Of a stretch of 64,000 nucleotides of DNA, positions 91-62,332 are shown one piece after another. The stretch is from a bacterium (GTDB lineage Bacteria; Patescibacteriota; UBA1384; CAILIB01): contig JBAXRQ010000001.1 in assembly GCA_037131105.1 (NCBI GenBank), positions 322,039-386,038 on the forward strand. Direction: 5' to 3'. Every line of letters starts with the position of its first letter. Position 1 is the first letter of the stretch. The position numbers and the translations under genes were made by a program. The notes under the pieces were generated by a model. That model ran no database searches, had not been told where the DNA came from, and saw only the letters and a list, made by a program, of their open reading frames with translations.

Positions 91-1254
91 CTAGAAAAGG
101 GCGGCGAGCAGCTGCATGGCCGCCTTGGTCTGGGACCAGTCCTGAGGCTCGTAAGTAGTCTCGAGGCTGTTGATATACGAAGTGTGGTCTGTGGACCCGG
201 GCCGCAGCTTGAGCTGGGTAATGAAGCTGGTGACGTCCAGGGGGTCCAGCAAGGTCTGGATGACCGGGGAGCCGGTGACGGCTCTTTCAACTATGGCAAC
301 AAATTCAGGCCGTTGATCGGCGGGGAGAAGGTTAAGTTGCTCCCATAGTTGTTCCTGAGCACTACCATTGGTGATGAGCTGTGGAGTTAGGACAGAAGTT
401 ATCTTCTCAAACTGGCTGAAGTCGATCTTCTCACCAGCATTGCGTACAAAGAAGGCCGCATCGGCCTTGCGTAAGAATTCAACTTCCTTGTCAAAGCGAA
501 GATAGTCCCAGAAAAGGGTGCAGTACAGCTCAGTGTCGTCTGGACCTCCAGTTCCGCCCATGGCTGTCAGAAATTCGAGCACATTCTCTAGTGACTGGAA
601 CAACACGAAGCTTTCCTCGCCGATACGCTGGCCTGCCGCCTGCTCCTTGTATTCGACGGGGAAAAAAGGAATCTGAGACATGAAGTCCATGACCTCCTTC
701 TTCATGGCAGTGGTGGGAACGACTGGGGTGAAGTTGTTTTCAGTGAGCAGGTCGGTAATCTTGTCTAGCAGTTCGGAAGCTTTTTTGAGTAGGTTGGGGA
801 GGGCCTCAGAGTCAAGCGAGGCATGGATGAAGGACTTAAGATATAAGAAATCCCGGTCATAATGAGGGGCTGCAAGCAAGAGAAAGCAACTATGCCAGGC
901 ATCCGTAAGATTCGCTGCCTGTATGGGGTCCAAGGGAGCAAGAGCGGTTGCGGTAAGGGTGGGGTACAGTTTTTGGTAATGGCCGATTACAGAGGTTGAA
1001 TTATACTTGCCAAGGGCGTTAGCAAGGCTGATTAAACCCGAAGGAGGAACTAATTCTGAAAGGTTGGTATCAAATGATGTACGGATAAGCCTGCCGATTC
1101 TTAATAGTATTTCGTGGGGAAGAAGGTTCGTCAAATCAGCAAAGAGGTCCTTATCTTTATCCTGTATGGTGCGGGCATATTCCAATAGGTCCTCGGGTGA
1201 GGCAGTGGGCAGCCAGGAAGCAAGCTCGATAACAAGGGAGGAAGGATCGGTCAC
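91..1254 (-). CDS. hypothetical protein (387 aa), translationally coupled partner of the giant membrane protein upstream
   Basis: Long ORF with a GTG start overlapping the stop of the upstream gene (GTGA overlap at 1251-1254). No recognisable motifs and no TM segments. Confidence 0.55.
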   Translation of the reverse strand: MTDPSSLVIELASWLPTASPEDLLEYARTIQDKDKDLFADLTNLLPHEILLRIGRLIRTSFDTNLSELVPPSGLISLANALGKYNSTSVIGHYQKLYPTLTATALAPLDPIQAANLTDAWHSCFLLLAAPHYDRDFLYLKSFIHASLDSEALPNLLKKASELLDKITDLLTENNFTPVVPTTAMKKEVMDFMSQIPFFPVEYKEQAAGQRIGEESFVLFQSLENVLEFLTAMGGTGGPDDTELYCTLFWDYLRFDKEVEFLRKADAAFFVRNAGEKIDFSQFEKITSVLTPQLITNGSAQEQLWEQLNLLPADQRPEFVAIVERAVTGSPVIQTLLDPLDVTSFITQLKLRPGSTDHTSYINSLETTYEPQDWSQTKAAMQLLAALF

Positions 1255-4200
1255 GCGCGTGCGTTATGGACGAGTGAAGGGGACCCAGACGCCTGTTTGT
1301 CCATGTTGATGTGGTTGACGTCGTAATCTTGTGTGATCTTGTTCCACAGATCTCGCTTCCCTCCCTTTCCCGGCCCTTCGTGACCACTTCCTATTGCTTC
1401 GACCCTAGTGATAAAGGTGTCGACATTCGCGGCTCCTCCTGCTGCCATCTCAATCTTTCTTTTAGCGGCTGCAGCCTCTGGCCGGGTGTCAGTCATAATG
1501 TTTCGCAAGCCGCCTGTAAAGGCCTCAACCTGTTTCTTTTCAAGCTTCCCCTCCTGCAGGCCCTTGGTAAAGGCGTGGAAGCCTACTTCTACATCTGGCT
1601 TTAGGTCGGCTGTGTCGCCTCCTAGCAGCTTCGCAAACTCCGTATGGCTTCCTTTAGGCATGAGGTCCTTTATAAGCTTGCCTTGCTCTAGGCTATCGGC
1701 TCCTTCAGCCTTGATGTAGCCGTTGCTCTTTTTCCCAATACGCTTCTCATACATTTCCAGTTCTTCATCTTTTAGTCCGATGTAGTCTTCTTTGGTCGCC
1801 TGGCGTGTCTCTTCAAGCCGGCCTAAAAGGGCGATGTTGGTGCTACGGTGACCTGCCGCCATGCCGCTTATCTCAGTGTCCATTCCATCATAGATTGTAC
1901 TGTTCTTTGTATCGATAGCCTTTAGCTGCTGGGTATAATGTCTCATCTGTGAGATGTCCTCGGCGGTGTGGTTGTCCTTTGCGAAGAGGTCCTTCAGGGA
2001 TTTTGAGTACTCAAGAACTTTCTGCTGTCTGAGAGCCTGTTCATTCTGGGTCTTTTCCTCGCCCTTTGCACGCATCTCTTCCCCAAGGCCCTGCTGCAAC
2101 ATCTGGTTTTTTAGAGTCTCTGCCTCTTTCTGCGCTTCAGCTATCTCGACCGGGTCGGTAAGGTCTTTGGCGGGGTTCTTGAGGAAGTTGTTCAGCTGCA
2201 TGGTCTTAGCTGTCTCAGCTTGTTCGGCTTTGAACTTTGCAGTAATGCCCTCTTTTCTTAGCGTCAGATACTCCTTTTTAAGGCGGGCGCTTTCATTCTT
2301 TTTGGTGCGCACCCCTTCCATCCAGTTCGCGTCAGACATCGTCTTGATTTCCTTCTCTGACTCAAGGTCAGCCAGCGCCTGCTGATAGTCTCCCTTGATG
2401 AGGTTGTCGCTACTTCGGTTTGCTTCCCAGCGGGTAGAGGCTTTCTCCGCATTCGTTTTATCGAGCTTGCTTTGCTGGAATTCCTTCGCCAAACGCTTGT
2501 TGTTATCCTTTCGAGTCTTGATCTCTTCCTTTAAGGCGTCATTGAGATTTGCCAGGGTCTCCTTCCGTATTTCGATATCTGCGGCCTGCTTTTTAAGGCC
2601 ACGACTCTTGCTAATAGACTCATTCATAAGCTCTTCTTCATCAAGCTTCAGCCGCTCCTGCTTGTTTTTGGTTGCAGCCTCCGAACGGGCAAAGGCACGG
2701 TTTACCAGTTTGCCCGGACCGACCTTTGCTAGGGCTCCCTTGACGACGGGTCCTTCCATAACCATTTTATTTCGTGCGTTCATGTTCTCCACAACTTTGC
2801 CATAGCCTCTTCGTACTGTTCCTGCAGGTGTGTAACGGTTTGCAGCGTTGCGCCCGTATTCATTCCACTTGTCCAGCACTCCCTTCGCTTCACCGGCCAG
2901 ACTGAACGGCGTCTTAATGGCAAAGTAGAGACAGACGATACCGAAGGCATAGCCGAGTATACCGGCGAGCGGTGCGTCGGCGCTGCCCAGCACCCCTGCA
3001 TTTACCGAACTTGCCCAGACTAAGGAAAGCCAGATCCAGAACCCAGCTGCCAGCGGCATGATCAGCCAGCCCTTCATCAGGCCCCACCAGCGCTTCCAGA
3101 CCGCCTCCAATGGACTAAAGAAGGCACCCATGGCAGCAAGCGGCGCCATAGGGACCATGACGTAGAAGATGATGCGCCGGACCAGCATCAGGAACGCTAC
3201 AATCAACAGCATTACTGCGGCGACGACGGTGAAGATGTTGAGAAGAGTAAGCTTGAAGATCTTACTGAGGTCTACATTGCTGTTGGCCTGGCACTTCTCG
3301 GTCATCCAGGCGGCGTTTGCATTGGGTAGACAGCTGACCGACCCACCTACGCCTCCTGCGATAGACTTAATACCTTCTGGGAAGCCGCTGTACTGATTTA
3401 CGAAGGACTCAAAGGAGGGGGCGGTGCCTTGCTGCGTACCTATCCCTATAAGTCCACGGGTAAGCTGCCCCACCACCTCCAAACTGGCGCGTACGCCGAA
3501 GAATGAGAAGTGAGCGACGATGAAGCCGATGATCAGGGCCGGTATCAGCTTGTTGATGGCGTAGGTATTGACTTGAATCTGCAGCAGGTTGGCCAGGGCG
3601 ATAAGGACAAGGCCTAGCACGAGGACGACGTTCAGGAACTGGAGGACCCGGTTATAGGCGTTCTGGACCAGGGCTCCGATGCCGCCGGGGGTATTGTCTA
3701 TCAGCTGCTGCTCGATAGGGGTGGTCATAAAGTTGAGGAAGTCGGGATCAGTCAGATATGCACTAATTGTGTTAGCTGTGCCGGCACCCTGTGGGCGCTG
3801 GATCATGTCTGCGCTATCGGCGAGAAAGAGGGCGGAAGTGTTTATGAAAAGCCCTGCGATGTCGTGGCCGATTACCGCGGCATTGCAGATGGCCCGCAAG
3901 TAGAAGTTGACGCTGAGCGGGGTGCCGTTGCCACCGCAGGGGCCACTGCTGGCATCACCGGTCACTGTTCCGATTTTTGGCTCGCCTGCAGCCACCTTTG
4001 CGGCAGCGTCAGTTAGTGTTTTGGTCAGTGCCTCTGGAGTTGCACCATTAGCTGACTCGGTCTGAGTCTGCAGACTGATAACCATATCTCGGATCGGCTG
4101 GTAGATGGTATAGAAGCTACCGAGGTCGGAGTAGGGGGTGTAAGTCCCGGTGGTTTTGGTCCACTCCACACCAACGCTTCCATCCTTGAGTAGGGTCTGT

Positions 4201-5174
4201 AGGTTGGCTGGGTCAGCATGGAGGTAAGCATAGGAGGACTCAAGATCTGTGATGAGCTTGGTGATCACCATTGCGGTGAAGGTGCTGTCTGAGTTGATGA
4301 TCTGGCTTACATCAGTTCTCCACTTGTCCTTGCCAGTTGCATCCTTAGGACTGTTCAGAAGTGTATAGATTTTGCCTAGCACGAAGCCTTGTTGGTTAAT
4401 CTGGGCAATGTCTTCACAGGTGGAGCCTCCGGTTTTTAGAAGTCCGCACGTCTCGCTGCGGGCCGCACTGTCCTTTAAATGGCCGACGAGATAGTCGTCG
4501 AACAGCTGTTTCCCGGCTCCATTTGCTTTTACGGTTCCCCCCGTACCAGAAGCCGCCGGAGTGTAGTCAAAATAGAAACCATTTACTGCAGTTGTAGTGC
4601 CAGCTTTTACCTTGACGAGGTCGGCAATGAGACCGGTTCCCCCGCCACCCGCGCCAAGACGCTCCAGAAGATTCCTCCAGTGGTTCTGGACGCTTTGCTG
4701 GCGGTACTGGGCAAGGATTACCCAGTCAGCCGCTCCGTTATAAAACTCCTGGGTAGTGTTGTTATTGTTGGGAGGATTCTCTGAGGTAAGTACGGGCTTG
4801 GTAGGTGCTTTGGAGAGTGCACTGAGCTTGGTTGTAATGGCGGTATAGGCAGCTGGTCCGTTGGAGAGGCCTCCGACAAAGAGAAGGGCCAAGGGCCCCA
4901 GAAGGACTTGCTTTGCAGCGAAATCCTTAAAGGCGGTGTTACATGTTACGTTGCAGCTCAGCCAGTTTGTGAACTGCTGCTGGGTTGCCGGCGTGGCAGT
5001 GAAGCCACCAATAGAAAGCCCACCGCTAGGGACCACTCCGCCACCGGGGAGACCAGTTGAAGGGGTGTTGGTATCGGCATGTGCGGTTGAGGGAACAAAC
5101 GCACCTACAAATCCGCCTACTGAGATAAGCAGTATTACCCAGGAAAGAATGATCGTACGCCCCCAATGGATCAT
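1251..5174 (-). CDS. giant (1307 aa) membrane protein. Signal peptide and ~500-aa extracytoplasmic domain, then a ~6-7 TM VirB6/TrbL-like core, then a ~600-aa K/E-rich coiled-coil tail. Possible type IV secretion / conjugation component
   Basis: N-terminal hydrophobic signal (ILLISVGGFVGAFVPSTAHA). Cluster of TM helices (LIVAFLMLVRRIIFYVMVPMAPLAAMGAFF..., LIMPLAAGFWIWLSLVWASSVNAG..., AFGIVCLYFAIKTPF). Very long charged C-terminus rich in KEE/KKE heptad-like repeats. Confidence 0.7.
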   Translation of the reverse strand: MIHWGRTIILSWVILLISVGGFVGAFVPSTAHADTNTPSTGLPGGGVVPSGGLSIGGFTATPATQQQFTNWLSCNVTCNTAFKDFAAKQVLLGPLALLFVGGLSNGPAAYTAITTKLSALSKAPTKPVLTSENPPNNNNTTQEFYNGAADWVILAQYRQQSVQNHWRNLLERLGAGGGGTGLIADLVKVKAGTTTAVNGFYFDYTPAASGTGGTVKANGAGKQLFDDYLVGHLKDSAARSETCGLLKTGGSTCEDIAQINQQGFVLGKIYTLLNSPKDATGKDKWRTDVSQIINSDSTFTAMVITKLITDLESSYAYLHADPANLQTLLKDGSVGVEWTKTTGTYTPYSDLGSFYTIYQPIRDMVISLQTQTESANGATPEALTKTLTDAAAKVAAGEPKIGTVTGDASSGPCGGNGTPLSVNFYLRAICNAAVIGHDIAGLFINTSALFLADSADMIQRPQGAGTANTISAYLTDPDFLNFMTTPIEQQLIDNTPGGIGALVQNAYNRVLQFLNVVLVLGLVLIALANLLQIQVNTYAINKLIPALIIGFIVAHFSFFGVRASLEVVGQLTRGLIGIGTQQGTAPSFESFVNQYSGFPEGIKSIAGGVGGSVSCLPNANAAWMTEKCQANSNVDLSKIFKLTLLNIFTVVAAVMLLIVAFLMLVRRIIFYVMVPMAPLAAMGAFFSPLEAVWKRWWGLMKGWLIMPLAAGFWIWLSLVWASSVNAGVLGSADAPLAGILGYAFGIVCLYFAIKTPFSLAGEAKGVLDKWNEYGRNAANRYTPAGTVRRGYGKVVENMNARNKMVMEGPVVKGALAKVGPGKLVNRAFARSEAATKNKQERLKLDEEELMNESISKSRGLKKQAADIEIRKETLANLNDALKEEIKTRKDNNKRLAKEFQQSKLDKTNAEKASTRWEANRSSDNLIKGDYQQALADLESEKEIKTMSDANWMEGVRTKKNESARLKKEYLTLRKEGITAKFKAEQAETAKTMQLNNFLKNPAKDLTDPVEIAEAQKEAETLKNQMLQQGLGEEMRAKGEEKTQNEQALRQQKVLEYSKSLKDLFAKDNHTAEDISQMRHYTQQLKAIDTKNSTIYDGMDTEISGMAAGHRSTNIALLGRLEETRQATKEDYIGLKDEELEMYEKRIGKKSNGYIKAEGADSLEQGKLIKDLMPKGSHTEFAKLLGGDTADLKPDVEVGFHAFTKGLQEGKLEKKQVEAFTGGLRNIMTDTRPEAAAAKRKIEMAAGGAANVDTFITRVEAIGSGHEGPGKGGKRDLWNKITQDYDVNHINMDKQASGSPSLVHNARA

Positions 5175-11995: not shown

Positions 11996-12080
11996 GGCTG
12001 CCCTCAAAAACCATTGAGACGTATTCCGAAGGAATACTGTTAGACAGGCTCCCTTGAGTCGAAGGTTTTTGAGGGCAGCC
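11996..12080. repeat. perfect 17-bp inverted repeat (ggctgccctcaaaaacc / ggtttttgagggcagcc) with ~50-nt loop containing an inner 7-bp hairpin, immediately 3' of uvrB
   Basis: Read directly from the sequence. The right arm abuts the uvrB stop codon. Confidence 0.6.
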
Positions 12081-15000
12081 TATGACTCGAGTTCTCGGAT
12101 TTGGTCTCTGAGCTTAGCTGCCCCCTCATAATCCAAGTGTAATGCGGCCTGGGCCATCTTGTCGCGCAGCTCTTCCAGATAGAACTTCTTCTCCATGGGC
12201 TTCAGCCGGTTGTACATGGCCTTCTCCTCGGCAACAGTAAGAGTCTCGTGGCTAGGTAAGGCGATAGTAATTGGCTTGTTCAGCAGCTGAGGCACGATTC
12301 CGTGCTCCACGTTATAAGCCTTCTGAATGGTGCGGCGGCGGTCGGTCTCATCGATAGCTCGACGCATGGAGCCGGTGATGTTGTTGGCGTACATGATGAC
12401 TCGTCCCTGGGGGTGGCGGGCGGCCCGGCCGATGGTCTGAATAAGTGAGGTCTCTGAGCGCAGGAAGCCTTCCTTGTCAGCGTCCAGTATGGCGATAAGG
12501 CTCACTTCGGGTAGATCCAGACCCTCGCGCAGCAGGTTGATACCCACCAGTACGTCATAGGTGCCTAGGCGCAGGTCCTGAAGGATCTGGGAGCGGTCCA
12601 AGGTCTTTACGTCGGAGTGCAGGTACTGGACCTTGATGTTTCGGTCCTGCAGGTACTCGGTGATGTCCTCGGCCATGCGCTTGGTGAGGGTAGTGACCAG
12701 GGTGCGCTCGTGTCGCTCGATGCGTATTGCGATTTCCTTGAGAAGGTCGTCTATCTGCCCGTCGATGGGCCGTATCTCGATCTCCGGGTCGGGGATGCCA
12801 GTAGGACGAATTAATAGCTGGGCTACCAGATCCACCTTCTTATCTTTTTCCAGACGGGTCTCCTGGGTCTCTACTTTTACCTTCTCCAGTTCGTACTTGC
12901 CAGGGGTAGCCGACACATAGACTGCCTGGCCGCGGCGCTCCTCAAACTCAGCAAAGGTCAGGGGGCGGTTGTCTTTGGCACCCTTCAGGCGGAAACCATA
13001 GTCCACCAGGGTATTCTTGCGGGCCTGGTCGCCGTTGTACATGCCGCCGATCTGAGGGATGGTCATATGTGACTCATCCACAAACAGTAGGAAATCGTCC
13101 GGGAAATAGTCCAACAGTACCGACGGGGGAGTGCCGGGCGCGCGCCGGTCAAAGTAGCGCGAATAGTTCTCGATGCCGGAGCAAGATCCGGTCTCGCGAA
13201 TCATTTCCAGGTCGAAGGTGACCCGCTGCTTCAGCCTTTGGGCTTCTAGCAGCTTGCCGTGGGCTTCGAAGTCAGCCACCTCGGCTCGCATGTCCCGTTC
13301 AATCTCGGCTAGGATCTCTGGGCGGGCGGTCTCTTCGGTCAGGAAGTGCTTGGCGGGAAATATCTCCACCTCGTCCACGCTCTCCAGTGACTTCTGGGTG
13401 ATGGGATCTATGAGATCAATACTCTCCACCTCGTCGCCAAACTGTACTATCCTGATCTGGTAATCCTCATAAGCCGGAAAGATGGTGATGGTGTCACCCT
13501 GCACCCGGTAGCGGCCGCGGGAGAGATCAATGTCATTTCGCTCATACTGCACATCGGCCAGCTTTCGGGTGAACTGGCGCTGAGGCAGCTGCTCGCCCTT
13601 CTTTACCGTGATATTGGCAAGGCGATAAACGTCAGGAGAGCCCAGACCGTAGATGCAGGAGACCGATGCAACGATGATGGTGTCCCGACGGGTAAGTATG
13701 GAGTGGGTGGAGGCGTGCCGGAACTTCTCGATCTCCTCGTTAATGGCCGAGTCCTTCTCGATGTAGGTGTCGGTCATCGGGATGTAGGCCTCCGGCTGGT
13801 AGTAGTCGTAGTAGGAGACGAAGTACTGGACGGCATTATCCGGGAAGAATTCCCTGAATTCGGCAAAGAGCTGGGCGGCCAGGGTCTTGTTGTGGGCCAT
13901 GACAAGGGTTGGGCGCTGCAGCCGCTCGATGGCATTAGCCATGATGAAGGTATTGTGAACAAAGAGCCCTCCCCGTCCTGTCATAAAGGTCTCAAGTCCA
14001 GGTACGCTAAAATCATACACATACGGGTGTAAAGGTTTTGTCGGTTCGCAAGATGCTATTGGGGACCAGTGAAGCCTGGTTAGTCCCAAGAGTTCTTCGT
14101 CCTTAACGTCTAGAGAGGCGCATATACGCTCAAAAAGTGTCCGAGAAGGATTTCGAATGCCTACTTCGATAGCTGAGATCATGGTGCGGGTGCATCCTGC
14201 TTTTAGGGCGACATCGCGTTGGAGGAGTCCTGCTTCCTGTCGTAATGTCAGGAGTCGCTTTCCTACTCCATACACCAGGTCAACATTGGTGTTCCCTGAC
14301 TTAATCTGCCTGAGAAGTGCGGCTGATTTTCTCGGGCTAATAAAGCCTATCTTGTATGCGAAAGCTCTAAGGTTGTCCTGCCCGCTAATGGTTATCAGAT
14401 GATACATACCACGAGTTCCATCTGGTTTTAGCTTGCTTACCGGCCTGAACCGTGCCCATATGCCAAACCGTAACAGTGCCTCGGCTATATCACTGGCTAG
14501 TTCCGGGCTAAGGGTTACGGCGGTTACGGCCCCCTTTTCAACTCCACCATCTCCCTCAAAGTAGGCAGAAAGAAGCTTGGCTAGGAACTTATTGGAAAAA
14601 GAGGGCCATAAGCTCGGTAGGCGCTTGTTATGGGCATGGGTGCCCATGTGGCTAGATAGTAGGTCTCTCCAAGAACGAATCCCGATTCTATAGTCACCTG
14701 TTTCTTGGAGCCCGAACGGGATGTTCAGCTCCTTGAGGCATCTCCCTACCTCGGCATGGACATAAGGGTCACGAACAGTAATCTGGGAGCCTCCTATAGA
14801 ACAATGGCCCTCAGCGATATACTGGCCAAAAATAGTGGCAACGGCTGGCGTAAGCGGAAGTGTCACAGGCTCGCTATGGATCTTGCCCTTCAGGCTAATC
14901 TCAAAAGGTTTAACAATGTTGCAGGCCAGAAGCTGCCTGGCAGCGGAGAGGTGTACTCCTTCATTAAAGCGGACAACCCGGTATGCTTTGGCATTAGGAT

Positions 15001-15631
15001 GTTCATAATGCCCTGCCAATATGTGGGCAAGGATAGGCTGAGAACGTACTGCCCCACGGAGCTGCACTCCTACGTTTTCAGAGGTGATCTCGTCAATGAG
15101 GTTCAGTGCGGTTAAGGGTCGCGGGGGTTCTGGCAGTAAAGCTGGTACTGGCAGCGCATCAGTTTCTCTGACTTGGCTTCCTTCAACAAGGCAAAGATGT
15201 CCGTCACGTAGTACCCAGACGCTATGGTCACCAGTTACGGTCACGGTTCTACCGCAGCTGGTTGTCAGCCTAAATAACTGGTCAGGAGAGGCGTGGCGGC
15301 TAAGTACGCTGATTTGCTCCCAACTGGTTTTACCAGTCTTAACATCCCAGGACATAACTTCCCATGTACGAGATGGGGCAACTGCGGCTGATTCGTTTTG
15401 TCGGAAGCCTTTTAGGTGTTGGTCGATAAGAAGTCCGATTGGTCCACGATAGGGACGTCCGTCGATACGCACTGTAACTGGTTCATCCCAGGCTACGCTC
15501 TTTCCCGTTCCTGTGGCTCCTAGCAGTACCTGAGACTGGGCTCCGGCCTCGACATTATTCACTATCTGTTCGATAGCGCTAGGTTGGTCGCCGTCGGGTG
15601 TGAAAGGAGCCTTTAGGTTAAAGCGCTTCAT
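12080..15631 (-). CDS. uvrB: excinuclease ABC subunit B containing a 516-aa intein (1183-aa precursor; mature UvrB ~667 aa)
   Basis: N-extein ...LLGATGTGK is interrupted after the Walker-A lysine. C-extein resumes [56 protein letters not shown]... and continues through the UvrB helicase motifs to a UvrC-binding C-terminus. AGGAGG RBS. Confidence 0.9.
13952..15499 (-). mobile_element. UvrB intein (Ser1 ... His-Asn/Thr+1) carrying a LAGLIDADG homing endonuclease and an embedded XRE-type HTH
   Basis: Begins [14 protein letters not shown]... and ends ...GGLFVHN followed by +1 Thr. LAGLIDADG-like blocks [12 protein letters not shown] and [12 protein letters not shown]. Cro/C1-type HTH ...[36 protein letters not shown]. 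Confidence 0.8.
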
Positions 15632-16004
15632 ATGCCTCCTTAATCTGGTCTAGCTTGTCTATCGGAATAATGGCGGCAGCGTAGCAGTCGATGTCAGTAT
15701 CGCCGGTGGACTCGGAGAAGCATACCGGTATCTTCTGGGCCAGGCAGTAACCCAGCTCGATCTTCACGCTGGTGCCCATGTAGCCTTCGGGAAGGATAAA
15801 GTAGGCTGCGTCAGCCTGTTCGGCCGCCTCATAGTGCTCCATGGCCAGGCGCAGCTTGTGGGCTGCGTCCAGGGCCTGATCGGTATTGCCGACCTCCAGG
15901 TCTAAGTTTGGGAATAGGGGAGTGATGCCCAGCTTCTCAAGAGCCGACATAGTGGCAGCTATCTTGCCTCTAAACTTGACGCTGGCGCAGACCAATACCT
16001 TCAT
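15618..16004 (-). CDS. nucleoside 2-deoxyribosyltransferase-like protein (128 aa)
   Basis: [11 protein letters not shown]...[26 protein letters not shown] resembles the Rossmann-like deoxyribosyltransferase family signature (GT.FELGYA..GKPV). 14-nt overlap with the uvrB start (coupled). Confidence 0.45.
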
Positions 16005-16128
16005 ATGCTGTGTTTTCTGGAAGTGTGAATACCTTATGCATAGGTCAATATACCAGAAAGTGGCAGGGAGAGCAGCACAGGGTGGCGTGGGCGCACTATT
16101 GCTGGTACAACGGGTGAAGGGGGTAACT

Positions 16129-16581
16129 ATGGATGAAAACCTTGTGAGTGTCGATGCTATTATTGCCGCTGCTCAGGCAATGAGCAGCATTCCTGATGGC
16201 GAAGGCATGCCACTGGATAGGGCTGCTTATGCCGCGAGGGCCTATCAACGGGAAAGTGGACTTGATGAGCTACTTGAAAAGGTTGATGGTCAGCTTATTG
16301 AGCCAGATAGGGGGCGAGCCTTAGAGGCGGTTGCCGGGGCGATTCCGGTTAGTGCTTTGTTGGCCAACAGCTACTGGGGGATCAAGCCCTCATATGTCAC
16401 GTTTTTTGTTGGACAGTTGGGTGAGGAGGAGGCTTGCCTTCGGCTCAATGAGATGTGGCGTGCCTATTCTGGTGACGATTTGCCTCTCGTATTGGGAAAG
16501 GAGGAAGGAGGAGAACATTGGGGTGCTTATCCGGAGCAATACAAAGAGATGTATTGTGAAATATATGGCTTCAGCCTGTAA
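16129..16581 (+). CDS. hypothetical protein (150 aa)
   Basis: Internal ATG (MDENLVSV...) preceded by a GAAGGGGG RBS. The longer ORF from 15886 would overlap the opposite-strand gene. Confidence 0.45.
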   Translation: MDENLVSVDAIIAAAQAMSSIPDGEGMPLDRAAYAARAYQRESGLDELLEKVDGQLIEPDRGRALEAVAGAIPVSALLANSYWGIKPSYVTFFVGQLGEEEACLRLNEMWRAYSGDDLPLVLGKEEGGEHWGAYPEQYKEMYCEIYGFSL

Positions 16582-16623
16582 TAGGCGCGAAGCTTTGGGG
16601 GAGTCGGATGTCCGGCTCCTCTT

Positions 16624-17343
16624 TTATATAGATTCCTCGAGTGAGTTTTTGGATAGCTCGGTGGTGCGCTGCTTGGCCTGGGCTTGGCGCCACTTTGCGA
16701 TCTCGGCATGGTGGCCGGAAAGCAGGATATCCGGTACGGTCTGGCCCTTGTATTCAAGCGGTCGGGTGTAATGGGGATACTCCACCAAGGGTTTGCCAGC
16801 TTCATCGAGGATGGAAAAGCTTTCTTCCTCAGGAGACTCCTTGCGGATGACTTCAGGAAGTAGACGGGCAATAGCGTCTACGACCATAAGAGCTGGTAGT
16901 TCACCGCCGGTCAGTACAAAGTCGCCTATGGAGAGCTGGGCATCTACCAAGGAGCGGATCCTTTCATCAAAGCCCTCGTAGTGTCCGCATATGAGGGTAA
17001 TCTGGTCGTACTGCTCGGCAGCGTACCTGACCCGGGGTTGGGTGAGGCGTTTGCCCTGGGGGGTCATCAGGATGCTGCGGCGTCGCTCAGCCGGGATAGC
17101 CGCCACCTCGGGGATTTCCAGTACCTTGTGCAGGGCGGCATCGAGGATGTCCACCTTGAGCACCATGCCAGCACCGCCGCCGTACGGGGTGTCATCGACG
17201 CTCTTATGGGTGTCGGTGGCCACTTCGCGGATATCATGGAGGTGCACCTCAACTAAGCCGGCCGCCTGGGCCCGCTTAAGAATCGAGGCCTCCAAGGGGC
17301 CGCGCAGCATTTCCGGGAACAGAGTGAGGATATCGAATCGCAT
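16624..17343 (-). CDS. trmD: tRNA (guanine37-N1)-methyltransferase
   Basis: [12 protein letters not shown]...[12 protein letters not shown]...[12 protein letters not shown], canonical TrmD SPOUT motifs. Confidence 0.9.
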
Positions 17344-19033: not shown

Positions 19034-19486
19034 TTAGGCCTCGGCGGGAGCCTCGGTTTCTTCAGCGGCAGGCTCCTCGGCGGGAGCGGCTTCCTCAGTA
19101 ACAGCCTCGGTCTCTGGGGCAGTCTCTTCGGCTGCGACCTCTGCTTCGGCTACGGGAGCCTCTTCAGCAGCAACCTCGGCTACCGGCTCTTCCTTCTTCT
19201 CCTCAGGCTTGGTGGGAGTGAAGAAATGGTGCACCTTCTTGCTCTTGTCCATGATACCGTCCTTGATAAGAAGGTTGGTAACGGTGTCGGAAGGCTGGGC
19301 ACCCAGCTTCAGCCACTTCTCGGCCTTGTCCTTGTCGATGACCAGGAGCTTATCGGCCTGGGCAGGGTGGTAGTGACCGATGATATCAACGGATTTGCCG
19401 TTCAGCTTGGAGCGCTTCTCCTGGACCACGATACGGTAGTGGGGAGCGTTGATCTTGCCGGTGCGGGTGAGTCGGATAGCGAGCAT
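19034..19486 (-). CDS. rpsP: 30S ribosomal protein S16 with ~70-aa Ala/Glu/Pro-rich C-terminal extension
   Basis: MLAIRLTRTGKINAPHYRIVV...IGHYHP S16 core; low-complexity acidic tail. Confidence 0.9.
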   Translation of the reverse strand: MLAIRLTRTGKINAPHYRIVVQEKRSKLNGKSVDIIGHYHPAQADKLLVIDKDKAEKWLKLGAQPSDTVTNLLIKDGIMDKSKKVHHFFTPTKPEEKKEEPVAEVAAEEAPVAEAEVAAEETAPETEAVTEEAAPAEEPAAEETEAPAEA

Positions 19487-19546
19487 GCGAAGAGAAAGAG
19501 AATTAGATAAGTCTGTACGCAGATTACCAGAAAGAAGGAGAGCTGT

Positions 19547-19710
19547 CTAGGACTATTTCATCTTTACTATAAGAATGGAATTTTCAATGGACTGAACGAA
19601 GGCTACAAAGGTCGAGGAAGCATATAGTATATGGTGACGAGAGCTTTGTAGACTGGAGTCAGTACAGTGGGGATTCCACTTACTTTAGTAAGGATGAAAT
19701 AGTCCTATAG
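19547..19710. repeat. imperfect ~18-25-bp inverted repeat (..ctaggactatttcatc.. / ..gatgaaatagtcctatag) enclosing ~110 nt, between fmt and rpsP
   Basis: 15-bp perfect core match gatgaaatagtccta in inverted orientation, read directly. Confidence 0.5.
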
Positions 19711-20514
19711 ATTTGGTGCTTCCAGGCCCAGCGTTGTATAAAACTCCTCTTCCTTGATCCTCTGGCCTGCCAAGAAGTCTGTCAGTTCCATGACCTTGCC
19801 ACCTTCAGGCTGCACCTTCTCGATCTTCAGCTTTCCACCGGAAAGCCGGGCCTTGTCGATGATCAGCCGTTTCTTCTTCCACTCGGTGTAGCTGCGGGGC
19901 CAGCCGGCATAGGCCCGGATTTCCCGCTCTAGCTCATCAGCGGGCTTTGAGAAGTCCAGGCGGCCGTCTTCTTTCTTAATGAAATGGCTGAAGCTGGCCT
20001 CTAGGTGGTTCTGCTCTGTGGGAGTAAGCCGTTCCTCCAGATAATCATCGATATTTTCCAGAAAGAGCTGGACGCCGCGCTTGGTAAGGATCTGATACAG
20101 TTCGTCGGGTAGCTCGTCGCAACGTAGAGGATGACGTTCCTGGGCAAGGACCGGTCCGTGGTCCATCTTAGTGTCGATCTCCATAAGAGAAACGCCGGTC
20201 TCACGCACGCCATCTAACAGAGCCTGGACCACCGGCGCAGGGCCACGGTACTCGGGTAGCATGGAAGGGTGGATGTTGAGAACCTGACCGGCCACGGTAT
20301 CTAATACGTCGCGCTTCAAGATGGCGCCGAAGCCCACTACGAGGAGAAACGTAGGCTCAGCTTGCTCGATCATGACTACTAGCTCCTCAGTGGAGAGCTT
20401 AGGGTTGTCGATGACTAGCCTGGGGGAGTATCCAGCATGCATCAATGCTTCCAAGGCAATGGGGCCGATGGGAGCTGACTGTAGTAATACGTAAGGAAGT
20501 TTAAGAGTGCTCAT
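19705..20514 (-). CDS. fmt: methionyl-tRNA formyltransferase (short form, 269 aa)
   Basis: ...LLVVGFGAILKRDVLDTVAGQVLNIHPSMLPEYRGPAPVVQALLDG... formyltransferase SLPxxRG-like core and C-terminal domain. Confidence 0.9.
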   Translation of the reverse strand: MSTLKLPYVLLQSAPIGPIALEALMHAGYSPRLVIDNPKLSTEELVVMIEQAEPTFLLVVGFGAILKRDVLDTVAGQVLNIHPSMLPEYRGPAPVVQALLDGVRETGVSLMEIDTKMDHGPVLAQERHPLRCDELPDELYQILTKRGVQLFLENIDDYLEERLTPTEQNHLEASFSHFIKKEDGRLDFSKPADELEREIRAYAGWPRSYTEWKKKRLIIDKARLSGGKLKIEKVQPEGGKVMELTDFLAGQRIKEEEFYTTLGLEAPNL

Positions 20515-20515
20515 A

Positions 20516-21019
20516 TTAGTAGCGAGGGTAGTCAGTGAGGGGACGCGTCCGAAGCTGCTTTTTAGTCAGGTATGAGGTAAAAAGAATGCCGTTTAGATGG
20601 TCAATTTCGTGCTGGAGTACTCGGGCCAAGAGACCAGCGCATTCGATCTCGACATGATTACCATCTAAATCAAGAGCTTTGACTCGCACCTTGTCAGGAC
20701 GGTAGACGATACCCTCAACACCAGGGATGGAGAGGCAGCCCTCTTCCATAGGCACTTTTCGCTTTCCTGTCCAGGTGACTCGGGGGTTTATGAGGGCAAG
20801 GTGAGGGATGGAGAAATCAGGGTCTTCATCAACGAGTTCGATCACCGTCAAAGCCACCGACTTCCCAACCTGGGGAGCAGCAAGTCCGACGCCGTGGGCG
20901 TTGTGCATAGTAGTACGCATATCCTCGGCCAACTGGCGGATCTCCGGGGTAATCTCGGTGATCGGCTCAGTTTTCTGACGGAGAATGTCGTGCTTGTCGG
21001 TGTAAATGGGAAGAATCAT
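20516..21019 (-). CDS. def: peptide deformylase
   Basis: GVGLAAPQVG, EGCLSIPG and QHEIDHLNG motifs. Confidence 0.95.
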   Translation of the reverse strand: MILPIYTDKHDILRQKTEPITEITPEIRQLAEDMRTTMHNAHGVGLAAPQVGKSVALTVIELVDEDPDFSIPHLALINPRVTWTGKRKVPMEEGCLSIPGVEGIVYRPDKVRVKALDLDGNHVEIECAGLLARVLQHEIDHLNGILFTSYLTKKQLRTRPLTDYPRY

Positions 21020-21092
21020 GGCTAGACTATATCAGAAAAAATCCCCTAGACCCACCCTGTGGGTCTGCAGTGTGCTGCTTTCTTTGGCAGGG

Positions 21093-45760: not shown

Positions 45761-46414
45761 ATGAAATTTCTCCTCACCTCTTCGGGTATCAGTAATCGTG
45801 CTTTGCTTAATTCATTATTGAACCTGGCCGGAAAGCCGGTCAACCAACTTAAGGTGGTCTACATTCCCACAGCTGCTAACGTGGAGCCAGGTGACAAGGG
45901 TTGGCTGATCGATAACCTGCGCGACTTTCAGGAAGCGGGGTTCGAGTCTGTGGATATTATGGATATCGCTGCGGTACCGCTTGAGATCTGGAAACCTCGT
46001 TTAGAGGCTGCAGACATCCTGGTGATGGGAGGTGGCAATACGAGTTATCTCTTAGAACAAATTCATTCCTCTGGCCTTGCCGAAGTACTGCCTGAGCTTC
46101 TGAAGACGCGGGTATATCTGGGAACCAGTGCTGGTAGTATGGTGGTGGGCACGGATATGCCGGCCGAGGCCTTGGAAATGGTCTATCCTGACGAGTCAAC
46201 CAAGGGCGAAAAGGGCCTTAGGCTTGTGGACTTTTATATCCTGCCGCACTTTGGCTCCGAGTACTTTCCCGAGGTGCATGAGAAGAATGCACAAAAGGTG
46301 GCGGATATCTCAAGGCAGACGGTCTACCTCTTGGATGATCAGACGGGAATCGAAGTTAATGGCGATTCTATAACGGTAATCGGTGAAGGTACCTGTATCC
46401 GGTATGAAAGGTAA
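45761..46414 (+). CDS. peptidase E-like (S51 family) protein
   Basis: ...ILVMGGGNTSYLL... and the catalytic-Ser region YLGTSAGSMV, typical of PepE/cyanophycinase-type Ser-His-Glu peptidases. Confidence 0.75.
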   Translation: MKFLLTSSGISNRALLNSLLNLAGKPVNQLKVVYIPTAANVEPGDKGWLIDNLRDFQEAGFESVDIMDIAAVPLEIWKPRLEAADILVMGGGNTSYLLEQIHSSGLAEVLPELLKTRVYLGTSAGSMVVGTDMPAEALEMVYPDESTKGEKGLRLVDFYILPHFGSEYFPEVHEKNAQKVADISRQTVYLLDDQTGIEVNGDSITVIGEGTCIRYER

Positions 46415-46495
46415 CCGTGTAGTTATTGTTTTTTCCAGCCTCCTCTTACCTGGTGTACGGCGGCAAGAAAAGGATCTTTATGATATGCTTATGCC

Positions 46496-46687
46496 ATGAC
46501 CAAAATACAGATTCTTCGTCGACAGAAGGCAGTAGCGGCAGCGGTCGGTTCGGTACGCGCTGAAGGCCTTAAGACAACAATAAAAACCCAGAAGCAGCTA
46601 AAAGAATACGCTGAGGGAAAGATTACTATTGCAAAACTACGCAGAGTTACTATTGATGATATAAAGGCAAAACAAAAAAAGAAGTAA
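46496..46687 (+). CDS. VbhA-like Fic antitoxin (63 aa) with inhibitory (S/T)xxxE(G/N) motif
   Basis: ...AAAVGSVRAEGLKTT... contains S-V-R-A-E-G, matching the alpha-inh motif of class I Fic antitoxins. Directly precedes the Fic gene (10-nt gap). AT-rich. Confidence 0.55.
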   Translation: MTKIQILRRQKAVAAAVGSVRAEGLKTTIKTQKQLKEYAEGKITIAKLRRVTIDDIKAKQKKK

Positions 46688-46697
46688 CCAAGAGCGT

Positions 46698-47330
46698 ATG
46701 CCATACGATGTCGATAATGATCCCTATATCGACAAGACAACAGGCATTCTTCGTAATCTCTTGGGTATAAAGACCCAGATAGTATTGGACGATGCTGAAG
46801 CGCAAATTACTGCAATAGAAATTACTGCCCTCACGAGTGGGGAGGGCTACCCGTATGATGAACCTTCGGTAGACTCATTGAAGGACATTCATAAGCAGCT
46901 TTTCAGGTATATTTACGTATGGGCTGGGTCGGTGAGAACTGTAGAACTAAGTAAGGGCGACACAAGCTTTGCTCGAGCTGTACATATTGAAAAGGCTATG
47001 GATGGTATTTTTACAGAACTAGAAAAAGAGGGCTATCTTGCAGGACTTAGTACTAATCTATTTGTGGAAAGGCTTGCTCACTACTATGGAGAGTTGATTG
47101 CACTTCATCCTTTTCGTGAAGGTAATGGCAGGACTATCCGTACCTTTTTGGCTATCTTAGCTGATAATAATGGGTGGCATATTGCTTGGGATGAAATGAA
47201 TTCGGAAGAAAATATTTCCGCATGTATTGCGGCGTACAAAGGAGATGAGACCCCATTGCGTAATATGTTGGAGAAGATTATCGCCCCCGTTGATGTATTT
47301 TGGGGCCGTGATCCCTATGAATTCATTTAG
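46698..47330 (+). CDS. Fic family protein (AMPylation/NMPylation toxin)
   Basis: Canonical Fic motif HPFREGNGRTIR in ...LIALHPFREGNGRTIRTFLAILA... Confidence 0.85.
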   Translation: MPYDVDNDPYIDKTTGILRNLLGIKTQIVLDDAEAQITAIEITALTSGEGYPYDEPSVDSLKDIHKQLFRYIYVWAGSVRTVELSKGDTSFARAVHIEKAMDGIFTELEKEGYLAGLSTNLFVERLAHYYGELIALHPFREGNGRTIRTFLAILADNNGWHIAWDEMNSEENISACIAAYKGDETPLRNMLEKIIAPVDVFWGRDPYEFI

Positions 47331-47394
47331 CCAATGCGGCTCATTTCCCCCAGCACAGCATTAGTCGGCGTATGTGCTACTCGATCTTTGTATC

Positions 47395-47570
47395 CCGGCA
47401 GGGGGAACATCACAAACAGATTGTGAAGGAAATGGATGAGTATCCCTAGATAGATGTCCCGGCTGAGCCACCTGATAAGGTCGAACACCGGTCCCGCCCG
47501 AAACCCCCCATAGACACTGGTATTCCAGGTTCGTCGCCAGCGGCCTATCAGAGGGTCTACATGTGAGCTT
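47395..47570 (-). pseudogene. remnant of the 3' half of a CPBP (CAAX/Abi) intramembrane-protease gene (decayed copy of the gene at 52432-52947)
   Basis: ~175 bp with ~85-90% identity to 52507-52672 (e.g. atgagtatccctagatagatgtccc[g/c]gctgagccacctgataagg[t/c]cgaacaccggtcccgcccgaaaccc). No intact ORF. Confidence 0.6.
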
Positions 47571-47751
47571 GGAAGTTCTCACACTGGAACAAGAAGAACC
47601 GCACCCAGGAAATGGACATAGCCCGGCGCTACCTGGCCGACACCAAGGATTACCTGTAATGCCAGAACCTGATATATCTAGCTTCTAGAGCATATTTCTG
47701 ATATAGAAAGAACACGGGTATCATATATACCTGTATTTCTAGGAGGTTTGA

Positions 47752-48699
47752 ATGAGGAGATCAGTTGGTAGAGGCGCCCTAATTATGGCGCTCGTACTCT
47801 GTACGGCTGTGGCTCAGGCCCAGACGGTCCCGCCGGAAACGCTGTTTCTGGGAAGGGCGAATGACTTGGGGAATACCACCTATGTGGACAATATCTCCCA
47901 GGGTCGGGATGACAATCCGGCCCGACTGTTTGATCGCGGGCGCCAGGCCGGCATCAAGGGTGGACGTATCGCCGACCGGGTGCTTCCCGACCTGCAGATG
48001 CTCTATGCCCAGGGCACCAGCCCCGTGTCGAAGCGCTGGATGGTTCAGCTGGCGGGTACTCGCCTGACCGGAAGCGGACCCTTCGGTCCCGGCACCCTTT
48101 CCTACCGGGACAAGGATGCCGGACTGCAGGTAGCCTACCGGGCAGGGAACCGACTTGATTTCGGCGTGGGAGTGGCAGATATCGAGACCGTCTCTCAGAT
48201 CAAAGTCGGCGGCATCGGCGGCTTTACCCTTACTAGCCAGCCACGCGGGCTAGGCGGACGGGTGGGAGCGCGCTACCGGCTCTCTCCCCGGATTGAGCTG
48301 GAGGGTACCTATGACCACTACGGCGATGCGGAAAGGACGGTGCCGCTGGGGGCCTTTGCTCCGCTTGGTGAGAGTACGGCGGTCTTCACCACCCAGAAGA
48401 TGGTGGTCGGCGGCAGTTACCGCGCCAAGGGCATCGAGGCAGCCATGTTCTATACCAAGCTGGACATAGATCAGCGGGGAGGCCCCTTCTCGCTGGGAAA
48501 GAACTTCCTTAATGGTGGCGTCAAGGCCACCCATGGACCATTCTACCTGGCGGCCGGGATGTATGACGGCTACGGAAGTGTGGGAGCTGGCATGGCACGG
48601 GGAAAGACCAGTCTTACCGTGGCGGCTAGCAACCGTAACAAGGCCTTCTCGCCCACTGCGAAGACGGCCTATTACGCCGAAGCAGTGAGAGGGTTCTAA
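47752..48699 (+). CDS. outer-membrane β-barrel protein (signal peptide; C-terminal ...YYAEAVRGF)
   Basis: Cleavable signal ALIMALVLCTAVAQAQT. Alternating hydrophobic β-strand pattern. Terminal Phe with an aromatic at -3, the classic OMP C-terminal signature. AGGAGG RBS. Confidence 0.55.
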   Translation: MRRSVGRGALIMALVLCTAVAQAQTVPPETLFLGRANDLGNTTYVDNISQGRDDNPARLFDRGRQAGIKGGRIADRVLPDLQMLYAQGTSPVSKRWMVQLAGTRLTGSGPFGPGTLSYRDKDAGLQVAYRAGNRLDFGVGVADIETVSQIKVGGIGGFTLTSQPRGLGGRVGARYRLSPRIELEGTYDHYGDAERTVPLGAFAPLGESTAVFTTQKMVVGGSYRAKGIEAAMFYTKLDIDQRGGPFSLGKNFLNGGVKATHGPFYLAAGMYDGYGSVGAGMARGKTSLTVAASNRNKAFSPTAKTAYYAEAVRGF

Positions 48700-60886: not shown

Positions 60887-62332
60887 ATGTTCGAACAGGC
60901 CTTCAAACGCATCGACGACGTGCTCCGTAAGGATGCTGGTGCCTCCAGTGAGCTTGACTATGTTGAGCAGACCTCCTGGATCTTATTCCTCAAATATCTG
61001 GACGACTTGGAGAAGGACAAGTCTACCGAGGCAGCTTTGGCCGGCAAGGACTACAAGGCCATCATCGCCCCCGAATACCGCTGGGAAGTCTGGGCGGCTC
61101 CCAAGACTGCAGACGGCAAGCTTGACCACCATAAGGCGCTTTCCGGTGATGACCTGCGGGACTTCGTCGACCTGCAGCTTTTCCCGTACCTAAAGAAGTT
61201 CAAGAGCGAGGCCGAGGGCCCGGATACCATCGAGTACAAGATCGGGGAGATCTTTAGCGAGATCAAGAACAAGATCCAGAGCGGCTACACCCTGCGGGAG
61301 ATTCTGGACGTGGTGGACGACATGCGGTTCCGCTCCCAGGCCGAGAAGCACGAGCTTTCCAGCCTCTACGAGGGCAAGATCAAGAACATGGGCAACGCCG
61401 GCAGGAACGGCGGTGAGTACTATACGCCCCGGCCTTTGATCAAGACCATTGTTAAAGTGGTGGATCCCAAGATTGGTGACACTATCTATGACGGAGCCGT
61501 CGGCTCGGCTGGCTTCTTGGTGGAGGCCTACGAATACCTCAGGAGCAGCCGCAAGCTCTCTACCGAGGATGTCCAGACCCTGCAGAAGAAGACCTTCTAC
61601 GGCAAGGAGAAGAAGTCGCTGGCCTATATCATTGGGATCATGAACATGATTTTGCACGGCATCGAGGCTCCCAATATCCTGCATACCAATACCCTGGCCG
61701 AGAATCTGGCCGACATCCAGGAGAAGGACCGTTACGATGTAGTGCTGGCCAATCCGCCGTTTGGCGGCAAGGAGCGGACCGAGGTGCAGCAGAACTTCCC
61801 GATCAAGACGGGGGAGACTGCATTTCTTTTCCTGCAGCACTTCATCAAGATCATGAAGGCAGGCGGCAAGGGCGGCATCGTCATCAAGAACACCTTTCTT
61901 TCAAATACTGACAATGCCTCGGTTTCGCTGCGCAAGTATCTATTGGAAGGTTGTAACCTGCATACGGTGCTGGATCTGCCTGGTGGTGCATTCGTGGGGG
62001 CAGGTGTGAAGACGGTCGTACTGTTCTTTGAGAAAGGGGCACCTACCAAGAAGATCTGGTATTACCAGCTGAACCCGGGAAGAAACCTAGGGAAGACGAA
62101 TCCGCTGAATGAGAAGGACTTGACGGAGTTTGTGGAGTTACAGAAGACGAAGGGGGATAGTGAGAATTCGTGGAGTGTGGGAGTGAGGGATCTTAACAGG
62201 GAGACCTGGGATCTGTCAGTGAGGAACCAAGATGCACTCAAGGGAGTCGCCATACGAGACCCAGAGATGATTATAAAAGAGATAAGGATTCTGGATGAAA
62301 AAATCAGGGCTACTCTTGAGAGTATTATATGA
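60887..62332 (+). CDS. hsdM: type I restriction-modification system DNA methyltransferase subunit M
   Basis: N6-adenine MTase motifs: motif I in ...DPKIGDTIYDGAVGSAGFL..., motif IV NPPFG (VLANPPFGGKE). HsdM N-terminal domain. Confidence 0.9.
   Translation: MFEQAFKRIDDVLRKDAGASSELDYVEQTSWILFLKYLDDLEKDKSTEAALAGKDYKAIIAPEYRWEVWAAPKTADGKLDHHKALSGDDLRDFVDLQLFPYLKKFKSEAEGPDTIEYKIGEIFSEIKNKIQSGYTLREILDVVDDMRFRSQAEKHELSSLYEGKIKNMGNAGRNGGEYYTPRPLIKTIVKVVDPKIGDTIYDGAVGSAGFLVEAYEYLRSSRKLSTEDVQTLQKKTFYGKEKKSLAYIIGIMNMILHGIEAPNILHTNTLAENLADIQEKDRYDVVLANPPFGGKERTEVQQNFPIKTGETAFLFLQHFIKIMKAGGKGGIVIKNTFLSNTDNASVSLRKYLLEGCNLHTVLDLPGGAFVGAGVKTVVLFFEKGAPTKKIWYYQLNPGRNLGKTNPLNEKDLTEFVELQKTKGDSENSWSVGVRDLNRETWDLSVRNQDALKGVAIRDPEMIIKEIRILDEKIRATLESII

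Follow-up and report, generated by a model that had tools for sequence, protein, structure and literature searches.

An extended VirB6-like membrane protein and its acidic partner encoded among housekeeping genes of a Patescibacteriota chromosome

VirB6-type proteins and a candidate two-gene module

Proteins of the VirB6/TrbL family (PF04610, TrbL_3, and TrbL_4), represented by VirB6 of Agrobacterium tumefaciens, TrwI of R388, and TrbL of RP4, are 300 to 350 amino acids long and have in common a polytopic core in which helix 2 is followed by a large extracytoplasmic loop, a Pro...Trp motif within the second half of this core, and a basic segment after the last hydrophobic helix. An extended-VirB6 protein consists of such a core plus at least one large hydrophilic domain in a central or C-proximal position (PMC12857230); these extensions are partly unstructured, and no role has been established for them (PMC12857230; PMC7648143). 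Type IV secretion systems (T4SSs) are widespread in Patescibacteria, and virB6 was found to be essential in the one species tested (PMC12102498; PMC12857230). Among T4SSs, that of Patescibacteria is the only one known to be indispensable to the organism carrying it, its function is not established (PMC12857230), and its genes follow the canonical order virB6-(x)-prgI-trsD-virB4 (PMC12102498 Table S3). Here, we describe two adjoining genes, gene A (1307 codons) and gene B (387 codons), located at the beginning of a 64,000-nucleotide stretch of a Patescibacteriota genome (GenBank assembly GCA_037131105.1, contig JBAXRQ010000001.1, positions 322,039 to 386,038; hereafter the window), and compare them with these systems.

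The gene A product shares with the VirB6/TrbL family the polytopic core, the large loop after helix 2, the Pro...Trp motif, and the basic segment, while it is about four times larger than these proteins, since it adds an N-domain of ~450 residues and a charged tail of ~510 residues. The first half of its core (TM1-TM2, the first two transmembrane segments, with the motif ANILQIQxNTYxxKK) has no counterpart detected in VirB6. Unlike VirB6/TrbL genes, gene A does not stand beside VirB3, B4, B5, or B8 but is followed by an unrelated partner gene. With a core, a charged tail of ~510 to 550 residues, and the ~450-residue N-domain, gene A has the composition by which extended-VirB6 proteins are defined. 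It resembles TraG of F, the paralogues of Rickettsiales/Anaplasma, and TcpH/ConG/Orf15 of the MPF_FA class of mating-pair-formation (MPF) systems in joining a VirB6-type hydrophobic core to large hydrophilic extensions (PMC12857230), and the paralogues within its own family recall those of Rickettsiales. These proteins differ from gene A in that they are encoded within or beside T4SS operons and that no conserved partner of the gene B type has been reported for them; their extensions had no detected sequence similarity to those of gene A. The canonical T4SS VirB6 of Patescibacteria, an essential protein in Ca. Southlakia epibionticum, belongs to the same broad family and phylum and carries a long charged tail as well, whereas gene A falls into a separate sequence cluster, possesses an extra N-domain (~300 to 560 residues in the class of proteins to which it belongs, described below as long-N), and is found next to its partner gene in place of prgI/virB4, among housekeeping neighbors.

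We judge the chances to be about even that the pair encodes a Patescibacteria-specific "extended VirB6" paralogue together with a dedicated cytoplasmic partner, most likely associated with a T4SS.

A VirB6-like core in a large Patescibacterial family

Word-indexed homologue searches with full-length gene A, with its residues 1 to 800, and with gene B returned self matches only. An exhaustive HMMER search with residues 1 to 800 of gene A as the query, from which the tail was left out, yielded 689 cluster representatives with a cutoff of E ≤ 1e-3, of which 222 remained at E ≤ 1e-10, and the region common to these relatives was found to span residues ~485 to 800. Membership of this core in the VirB6/TrbL superfamily is well supported by comparisons at the profile level. 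Of 32 relatives, five matched Pfam TrbL (best E = 2.5e-5) and one matched TrbL_4, and a 25-sequence core profile searched against the PDB had as its best match TrwI, the VirB6 of R388 (E = 0.0011, with the next match at 0.29). As references, we used four bona fide VirB6 genes from plasmids of the MPF_T class, each flanked by VirB5/EexN and VirB8. Against these, the family core gave an hhalign probability of 76% (E = 2.3e-5), and the alignment placed P678 on TrwI P181 and W696 on TrwI W199, both of which are invariant in TrwI-type proteins. Sub-profiles of two classes of relatives, long-N and short-N, gave 73% (E = 3e-5 over 146 columns) and 88% (E = 3e-6), respectively. Thus, the VirB6/TrbL likeness noted in the initial annotation was borne out by the Pfam TrbL matches in relatives, by TrwI as the top PDB match, and by hhalign E values of 2e-5 to 3e-6.

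One short-N member of the family, in locus L010, is directly followed by a PrgI/VirB3-family gene and then a TraC/VirB4-like gene, the order given for T4SS loci of Patescibacteria in PMC12102498 Table S3. The broad family therefore includes true T4SS VirB6. It could still be argued that the core is no VirB6 homologue but a polytopic protein of similar composition, from an unrelated transporter or some other family, since hmmscan finds no Pfam family in gene A and all hhalign probabilities are below 90%. We consider this very unlikely: Pfam TrbL is matched in relatives, TrwI is the sole top PDB match, the invariant residues align in hhalign, one member of the family is encoded within a canonical virB6-prgI-virB4 locus, and nothing favors another family. 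A precomputed PF19590 TrbL_3 label (E ≤ 1e-5), with which the profile comparisons agree, is recorded for gene A and was not reproduced by hmmscan, a mismatch that may come from a difference in Pfam version or filter; direct sequence searches of NCBIfam, PHROGs, and the PDB with gene A gave no match. The initial annotation had named two findings that together would speak against it, namely, an absence of T4SS components nearby and a core matching an unrelated transporter family. The former was observed and the latter was not, and so the VirB6 reading stands.

Relatives differed in how far the core lies from the N terminus. Among 138 full-length cores, 48 were long-N (core beginning after residue 150) and 86 were short-N (core beginning by about residue 60). 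Average-linkage clustering of the core alignment separated one cluster, containing 46 of the 48 long-N proteins together with L004 to L009, from another with 84 short-N proteins and the T4SS-linked L010, and the mean core identity between the long-N and short-N clusters was 27%. Gene A is a long-N member and, at the level of core sequence, was shown to belong to this distinct long-N cluster of a large Patescibacterial VirB6-like family. By the same measure, the long-N VirB6-like proteins are a separate and widespread class of VirB6 paralogues, which we do not equate with the canonical Patescibacteria VirB6.

Long tails were present in nearly all of 137 relatives examined, with a median length of 533 residues (range, 143 to 826) and a charged fraction of ~30%. 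The long charged tail is thus a trait of the family and is not peculiar to gene A. It evolves fast in sequence, as the gene A tail showed no significant similarity to the tails of relatives but for one weak match (P0023). The features of the locus are summarized in Table 1.

Table 1. Features of the gene pair in the window and net charges of core segments (charges averaged over 138 cores)
Feature	Position in window	Strand	Description
Gene A	1251..5174	minus	1307-residue extended VirB6-like membrane protein, ATG start; MEI6477694.1, WCO52_01790
Signal-peptide-like N terminus, residues 1-33	5076..5174	minus	Basic n-region, hydrophobic 8-26, cleavage-type site AHA/D; predicted cleavage
Hypervariable N-domain, residues 34-480	3735..5075	minus	T/G/A/N-rich, hydrophilic, three Cys pairs; probably outside the cytoplasm
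Conserved VirB6/TrbL-like core, residues 481-800	2775..3734	minus	Identified by profile searches and hydropathy
Most conserved core motif, residues 666-707	3054..3179	minus	R666...P678-L-A...W696..W703-x-x-M706-P
Charged tail, predicted helical, residues 801-1307 plus stop	1251..2774	minus	33% K/R/E/D, no Cys
Stop/start overlap GTGA, gene A/gene B	1251..1254	minus	4 nucleotides; putative translational coupling
Gene B	91..1254	minus	387-residue acidic partner, GTG start; MEI6477693.1, WCO52_01785
KGG-motif open reading frame, 48 residues	5257..5403	minus	Ends 82 nucleotides upstream of gene A, same strand; possibly co-transcribed
Core loop 1-2			Net charge +2.2
Large variable Cys loop (2-3)			Net charge -1.6
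Conserved Arg between segments 3 and 4			Net charge +1.0
Core loop 4-5			Net charge +2.2
Core loop 5-6			Net charge -0.2
~50 residues after the last segment			Net charge +5.7

The gene pair, the charged tail, and membrane topology

Both open reading frames (ORFs) lie exactly where the initial annotation had placed them. The two proteins are present unchanged in public collections, where each is annotated "hypothetical protein", and the close relatives of gene A are at present all annotated as hypothetical proteins only. Gene A and gene B are genuine, intact ORFs rather than chance ones, because the core of gene A matches 689 representatives and homologues of gene B occupy the same position in five other loci. 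At their junction (...GCG CGC GTG ACC...), the TGA stop codon of gene A overlaps the GTG start codon of gene B, giving the four shared nucleotides already recognized as GTGA, and no obvious Shine-Dalgarno sequence was seen upstream of the gene B start. No tandem repeats were found in the DNA, and promoter and terminator scans remained at background level.

Related loci were collected with a six-sequence alignment and comprised six genome loci (Patescibacteria or Berkelbacteria metagenome-assembled genomes [MAGs]) and two metagenome contigs without an organism label. In every locus reaching past the long-N gene, the next ORF encodes 380 to 408 residues, is a gene B homologue, and abuts or overlaps the VirB6-like ORF. 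With phmmer, the homologues were matched at 4e-17 (L006), 2e-7 (L009), 1e-6 (L007), and 1e-4 (L008), and a five-member partner profile also matched a truncated ORF in L005 (1.9e-5). In L005 to L009, longest-ORF calls place the partner start 1 to 6 nucleotides, in record coordinates, from the end of the VirB6-like ORF, and the two ORFs share one base in L008. The partner directly follows the long-N gene in all six informative loci, the window included, and this, along with the tight junction, agrees with the original proposal of a gene pair: gene A and gene B form one conserved, tightly linked two-gene unit.

The gene B product has an isoelectric point (pI) of 4.6, lacks a signal peptide and a transmembrane segment, and is predicted to be all-alpha. 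The partners share only 16 to 19% identity, while an acidic character is common to them (pI 4.6 to 4.85 in 5/5 loci, versus a tail pI of about 9 in 4/5 loci). As the initial annotation had it, the protein contains no known motif: Pfam, NCBIfam, and PHROGs gave no family match for gene B, and no relative was found in the PDB. The only PDB match of the gene B family profile was a de novo designed helical protein, and a Pfam scan of five partners produced sub-threshold TPR/ARM-like noise only. No description of such a partner was found in the family libraries or the literature searched.

By hydropathy and direct sequence reading, gene A starts with a signal-peptide-like segment (MIHWGRTIILSWVILLISVGGFVGAFVPSTAHA, followed by D). 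Such a start had been recognized before, and the hydrophilic stretch behind it measures ~450 residues, close to the ~500 first estimated. Within this N-domain, the Cys residues occur as closely spaced pairs (74/78, 243/253, and 413/430). Only residues ~254 to 480 are common to any relative, and to one alone (P0003), while among the N-domains of the related loci only those of L006 and L009 resemble one another; the N-domain of gene A had no Pfam or PDB match. The polytopic core was also confirmed, with six hydrophobic segments by hydropathy (510-528, 543-561, 647-665, 668-686, 704-722, and 735-753). Segments 2 and 3 are separated by a variable loop of 85 residues containing Cys (562-646), and P678 and W696 are invariant or nearly so across the core family.

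Counted from residue 754, the tail is composed of 12% K and 10% E, with K, R, E, and D together amounting to 33%. In a single-sequence AlphaFold model of residues 480 to 1307, which had a low mean predicted local distance difference test score (pLDDT; 49.3), the chain was all helical, with tail helices of 34 to 78 residues and short helices and loops in the last ~170 residues. The occupancy of heptad a/d positions in the tail was 0.437 compared with 0.394 ± 0.020 in shuffles, the per-helix z values did not exceed 2, and the signal was concentrated at residues ~854 to 900 and 1047 to 1122; an i/i+4 charge pattern of the single-alpha-helix type was not found in the tail. Since the heptad signal is weak, the designation "charged helical tail" is justified and "giant coiled coil" is not. 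Thus, of the giant coiled-coil tail first proposed, the Lys/Glu-rich composition was retained, whereas its length is ~510 to 550 rather than ~600 residues and its heptad periodicity is weak. For gene B, the single-sequence model reached a pLDDT of 37.6. With such values, both models are too poor for fold inference, and a Foldseek run against the PDB returned noise only (best E = 0.67).

Averaged over the 138 cores, the segment charges (Table 1) show a positive-inside pattern with an N-out/C-in bias. Cys residues are present in the N-domain and absent from the tail. Segments 3 and 4 appear in the low-confidence AlphaFold model as one continuous helix of 46 residues, and if they do form a single helix, the data would fit five membrane crossings with the N terminus outside and the tail inside. 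Jakubowski and colleagues reportedly mapped, in 2004, the C terminus of Agrobacterium VirB6 to the cytoplasm. In the R388 structure, on the other hand, only two N-proximal helices of VirB6 cross the membrane (PMC12857230). If this held for gene A, the remaining core helices and the ~510-residue tail would point outward as a helical fiber, possibly pentameric, running through the cell wall toward a host, and gene B would encode a cytoplasmic chaperone or an unrelated protein. The long predicted tail helices and the single helix modeled for TM3-TM4 are in keeping with this arrangement, as is the fact that the cell-wall-spanning part of monoderm T4SSs is still unestablished (PMC12857230). Nevertheless, we regard an outward tail as fairly unlikely, given the strongly positive segment after the core (net +5.7), a tail devoid of Cys versus Cys pairs in the N-domain and loop, the weak heptad signal, a conserved partner without an export signal, and the cytoplasmic C terminus reported for Agrobacterium VirB6. 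The orientation of the tail is a separate question, and an outward tail could be combined either with the T4SS-associated reading given above or with the T4SS-independent one discussed below.

Genomic setting and possible roles of the module

The rest of the window is an ordinary small-genome chromosome encoding FolD, GlyA, ThrRS, ribosomal protein L25, UvrB, UvrA, PriA, CTP synthase, Der, signal peptidase, Lgt, and RNase P RNA, with FolD, GlyA, and ThrRS flanking the pair. The guanine-plus-cytosine (GC) content across the pair (0.52 to 0.55) is like that of the rest of the window. In relatives, the module is preceded by genes for a class-I aminoacyl-tRNA synthetase (aaRS) and a TPR protein and followed by those for a SLOG-family protein, an L,D-transpeptidase, and a thioredoxin-reductase-like protein, with PolA, Mur ligase, and FemAB further out. 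The order is strongly conserved in L003 to L007 and L009 (Berkelbacteria-type MAGs): after PolA, Mur ligase, and FemAB, all encoded on the opposite strand, come the class-I aaRS, a 200-residue TPR protein, the VirB6-like protein, the partner, a SLOG-cluster-4 protein, and a YkuD L,D-transpeptidase. In these relatives, the TPR gene stands immediately before the VirB6-like gene and overlaps that of the aaRS; TPR and SLOG genes are not near the pair in the window. A conserved gene of ~700 codons upstream in relatives was first guessed to be VirB4 and proved to be the class-I aaRS. A VirB4-bearing T4SS gene cluster was absent from L003 to L009, and only the short-N locus L010 has one.

The initial annotation had suggested that the pair might be a remnant or standalone component of a type IV secretion/conjugation or contact-dependent system, its other parts, if any, lying beyond the window start. 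For a remnant of a conjugative or integrative element, or of a contact-dependent system, with further genes just outside the window, one could cite the VirB6 homology, the nearby RadC gene, and a PIN/PhdYeFM pair ~5 kb downstream. However, neither ORF is disrupted, at least six genomes have conserved the pair in housekeeping contexts, the GC content is unremarkable, no relatives were found in the viral contig collection, and no relaxase, type IV coupling protein (T4CP), VirB4, integrase, or flanking tRNA gene occurs within -10 to +74 kb of the window. The missing parts sought beyond the window start did not turn up either, as the 10 kb there, the rest of the window, and the 10 kb past its far end hold no T4SS gene. 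RadC had been brought forward as a frequent passenger of conjugative elements, and while the divergent RadC gene was indeed seen upstream, as was the KGG-motif ORF on the same strand as the pair, RadC adjoins the pair in no relative, and the argument drawn from it was dropped. The remnant reading is largely refuted already, and we give it scarcely any probability. Since the pair resides among housekeeping genes and away from a secretion ATPase, it represents a separate branch derived from a known machine part and not a relic of a mobile element. The KGG ORF consists almost wholly of the KGG stress-protein repeat motif, has no equivalent in the loci of relatives, and, not being kept beside the pair there, is context only.

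Under the T4SS-associated reading, the gene A core would oligomerize in the membrane like VirB6 (a pentamer in R388), with the variable, disulfide-bearing N-domain and the TM2-TM3 loop facing outward and the ~510-residue charged helical tail in the cytoplasm. There, the acidic, all-alpha gene B product would bind the tail at a ratio of roughly 1:1, aided by translational coupling; the charge complementarity between acidic partners and mildly basic tails was counted for such binding. The module would most likely work with T4SS ATPases and pilins whose genes are located in other parts of the genome. It could serve as an alternative or accessory platform in the T4SS-like machine through which the epibiont interacts with its host, in which the tail and its partner would act as a cytoplasmic docking or regulatory scaffold. 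In a published survey, 176 of 480 VirB6 matches were not near virB4, and T4CP genes were near virB4 in only 148 of 5713 cases (PMC12102498). T4SS genes are thus often scattered in Patescibacteria, which supports a module serving a T4SS-like apparatus encoded elsewhere.

Several observations weigh against this reading. The hhalign probabilities are moderate (73 to 88%) and cover only the C-terminal half of the core, and hmmscan against Pfam found no family on gene A as a whole or on its isolated core, even at E ≤ 10. The window and the 10 kb on either side of it contained no VirB4, VirB3, PrgI, TrsD, VirD4, or pilin gene, and none of these genes, nor a relaxase or integrase gene, was found in any partner-linked locus of a relative. 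The binding of tail and partner is purely what we infer, the tails lack sequence conservation even where the partners are homologous, and the AlphaFold models of gene A and gene B are both of low confidence. Finally, an R388-like topology, if valid here, could leave the tail outside and unable to meet a cytoplasmic partner.

The main rival to the T4SS-associated reading is that the long-N paralogue lost its link to the ATPase after duplication and acts with gene B alone as a T4SS-independent machine, e.g., a host-attachment or envelope-spanning complex in which the N-domain would recognize the host surface, while tail and partner would form a cytoplasmic scaffold. The pair is always detached from VirB3/VirB4 and embedded in housekeeping synteny (aaRS-TPR-VirB6L-partner-SLOG-YkuD), the partner occupies the place of PrgI/VirB4 in the canonical locus, the sequence cluster is separate, and the N-domain shows the hypervariability to be expected of a recognition domain exposed at the surface. 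All this makes the proposal a real possibility, though not a probable one. Full retention of the VirB6 core motifs, with their invariant R, P, and W, argues against independence from a T4SS, and the scattering of T4SS genes noted above (148/5713 T4CP genes near virB4; 176/480 VirB6 matches not) means that separation from virB4 is common in Patescibacteria. In addition, no VirB6-like protein is known to work without VirB4. A somewhat less probable and more tentative version is that the pair forms a previously unrecognized two-component envelope machine of Patescibacteria, derived from the T4SS platform and running without T4SS ATPases, whose N-domain would engage the host and whose fast-evolving tail and partner would couple this contact to the cytoplasm.

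Other features of the region were recorded alongside the pair. A PIN_3/PhdYeFM toxin-antitoxin pair (L001 20320-21013) lies ~5 kb beyond the window start, downstream of the module, and sits among small genes without a family match. The UvrB gene (window 12080-15631, minus strand; 1183 residues) is interrupted by an intein with a LAGLIDADG homing-endonuclease and a helix-turn-helix (HTH) domain, with Pfam matches to Intein_splicing, LAGLIDADG_3, and HTH_3 within residues ~92 to 560. Near the far end of the window, a type I restriction-modification operon harbors a Shedu-type nuclease gene (SduA_C), the gene order being HsdM - SduA - HsdS - HsdR (window 60887-63414, plus strand, continuing into L015 8559-14601); the drop in GC content to 0.415 at 62 to 64 kb suggests that this stretch is a small acquired defense island. 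Another dip, to 0.48 against 0.52 to 0.58 elsewhere, was seen at window 46001-48000 and contains ORFs at 45761-46414, 46698-47330, and 47752-48699, the last without a Pfam match. Past the far end of the window by ~5 to 10 kb, L015 carries genes for a Pup-ligase (PafA-like) and for the haem-copper oxidase components COX2/COX_ARM and COX1 (15962-17314 and 19055-21086). Respiratory-chain and pupylation genes are unusual for Patescibacteria-like organisms with a genome below 1 Mb such as this one.

For the Patescibacteria, hidden Markov model surveys that count VirB6 proteins "not near virB4" may lump in the distinct long-N module. A paralogue class with an extra surface domain, a dedicated partner, and an ATPase-independent position provides a concrete handle on the questions that surround both the Patescibacteria T4SS and the extended-VirB6 proteins.

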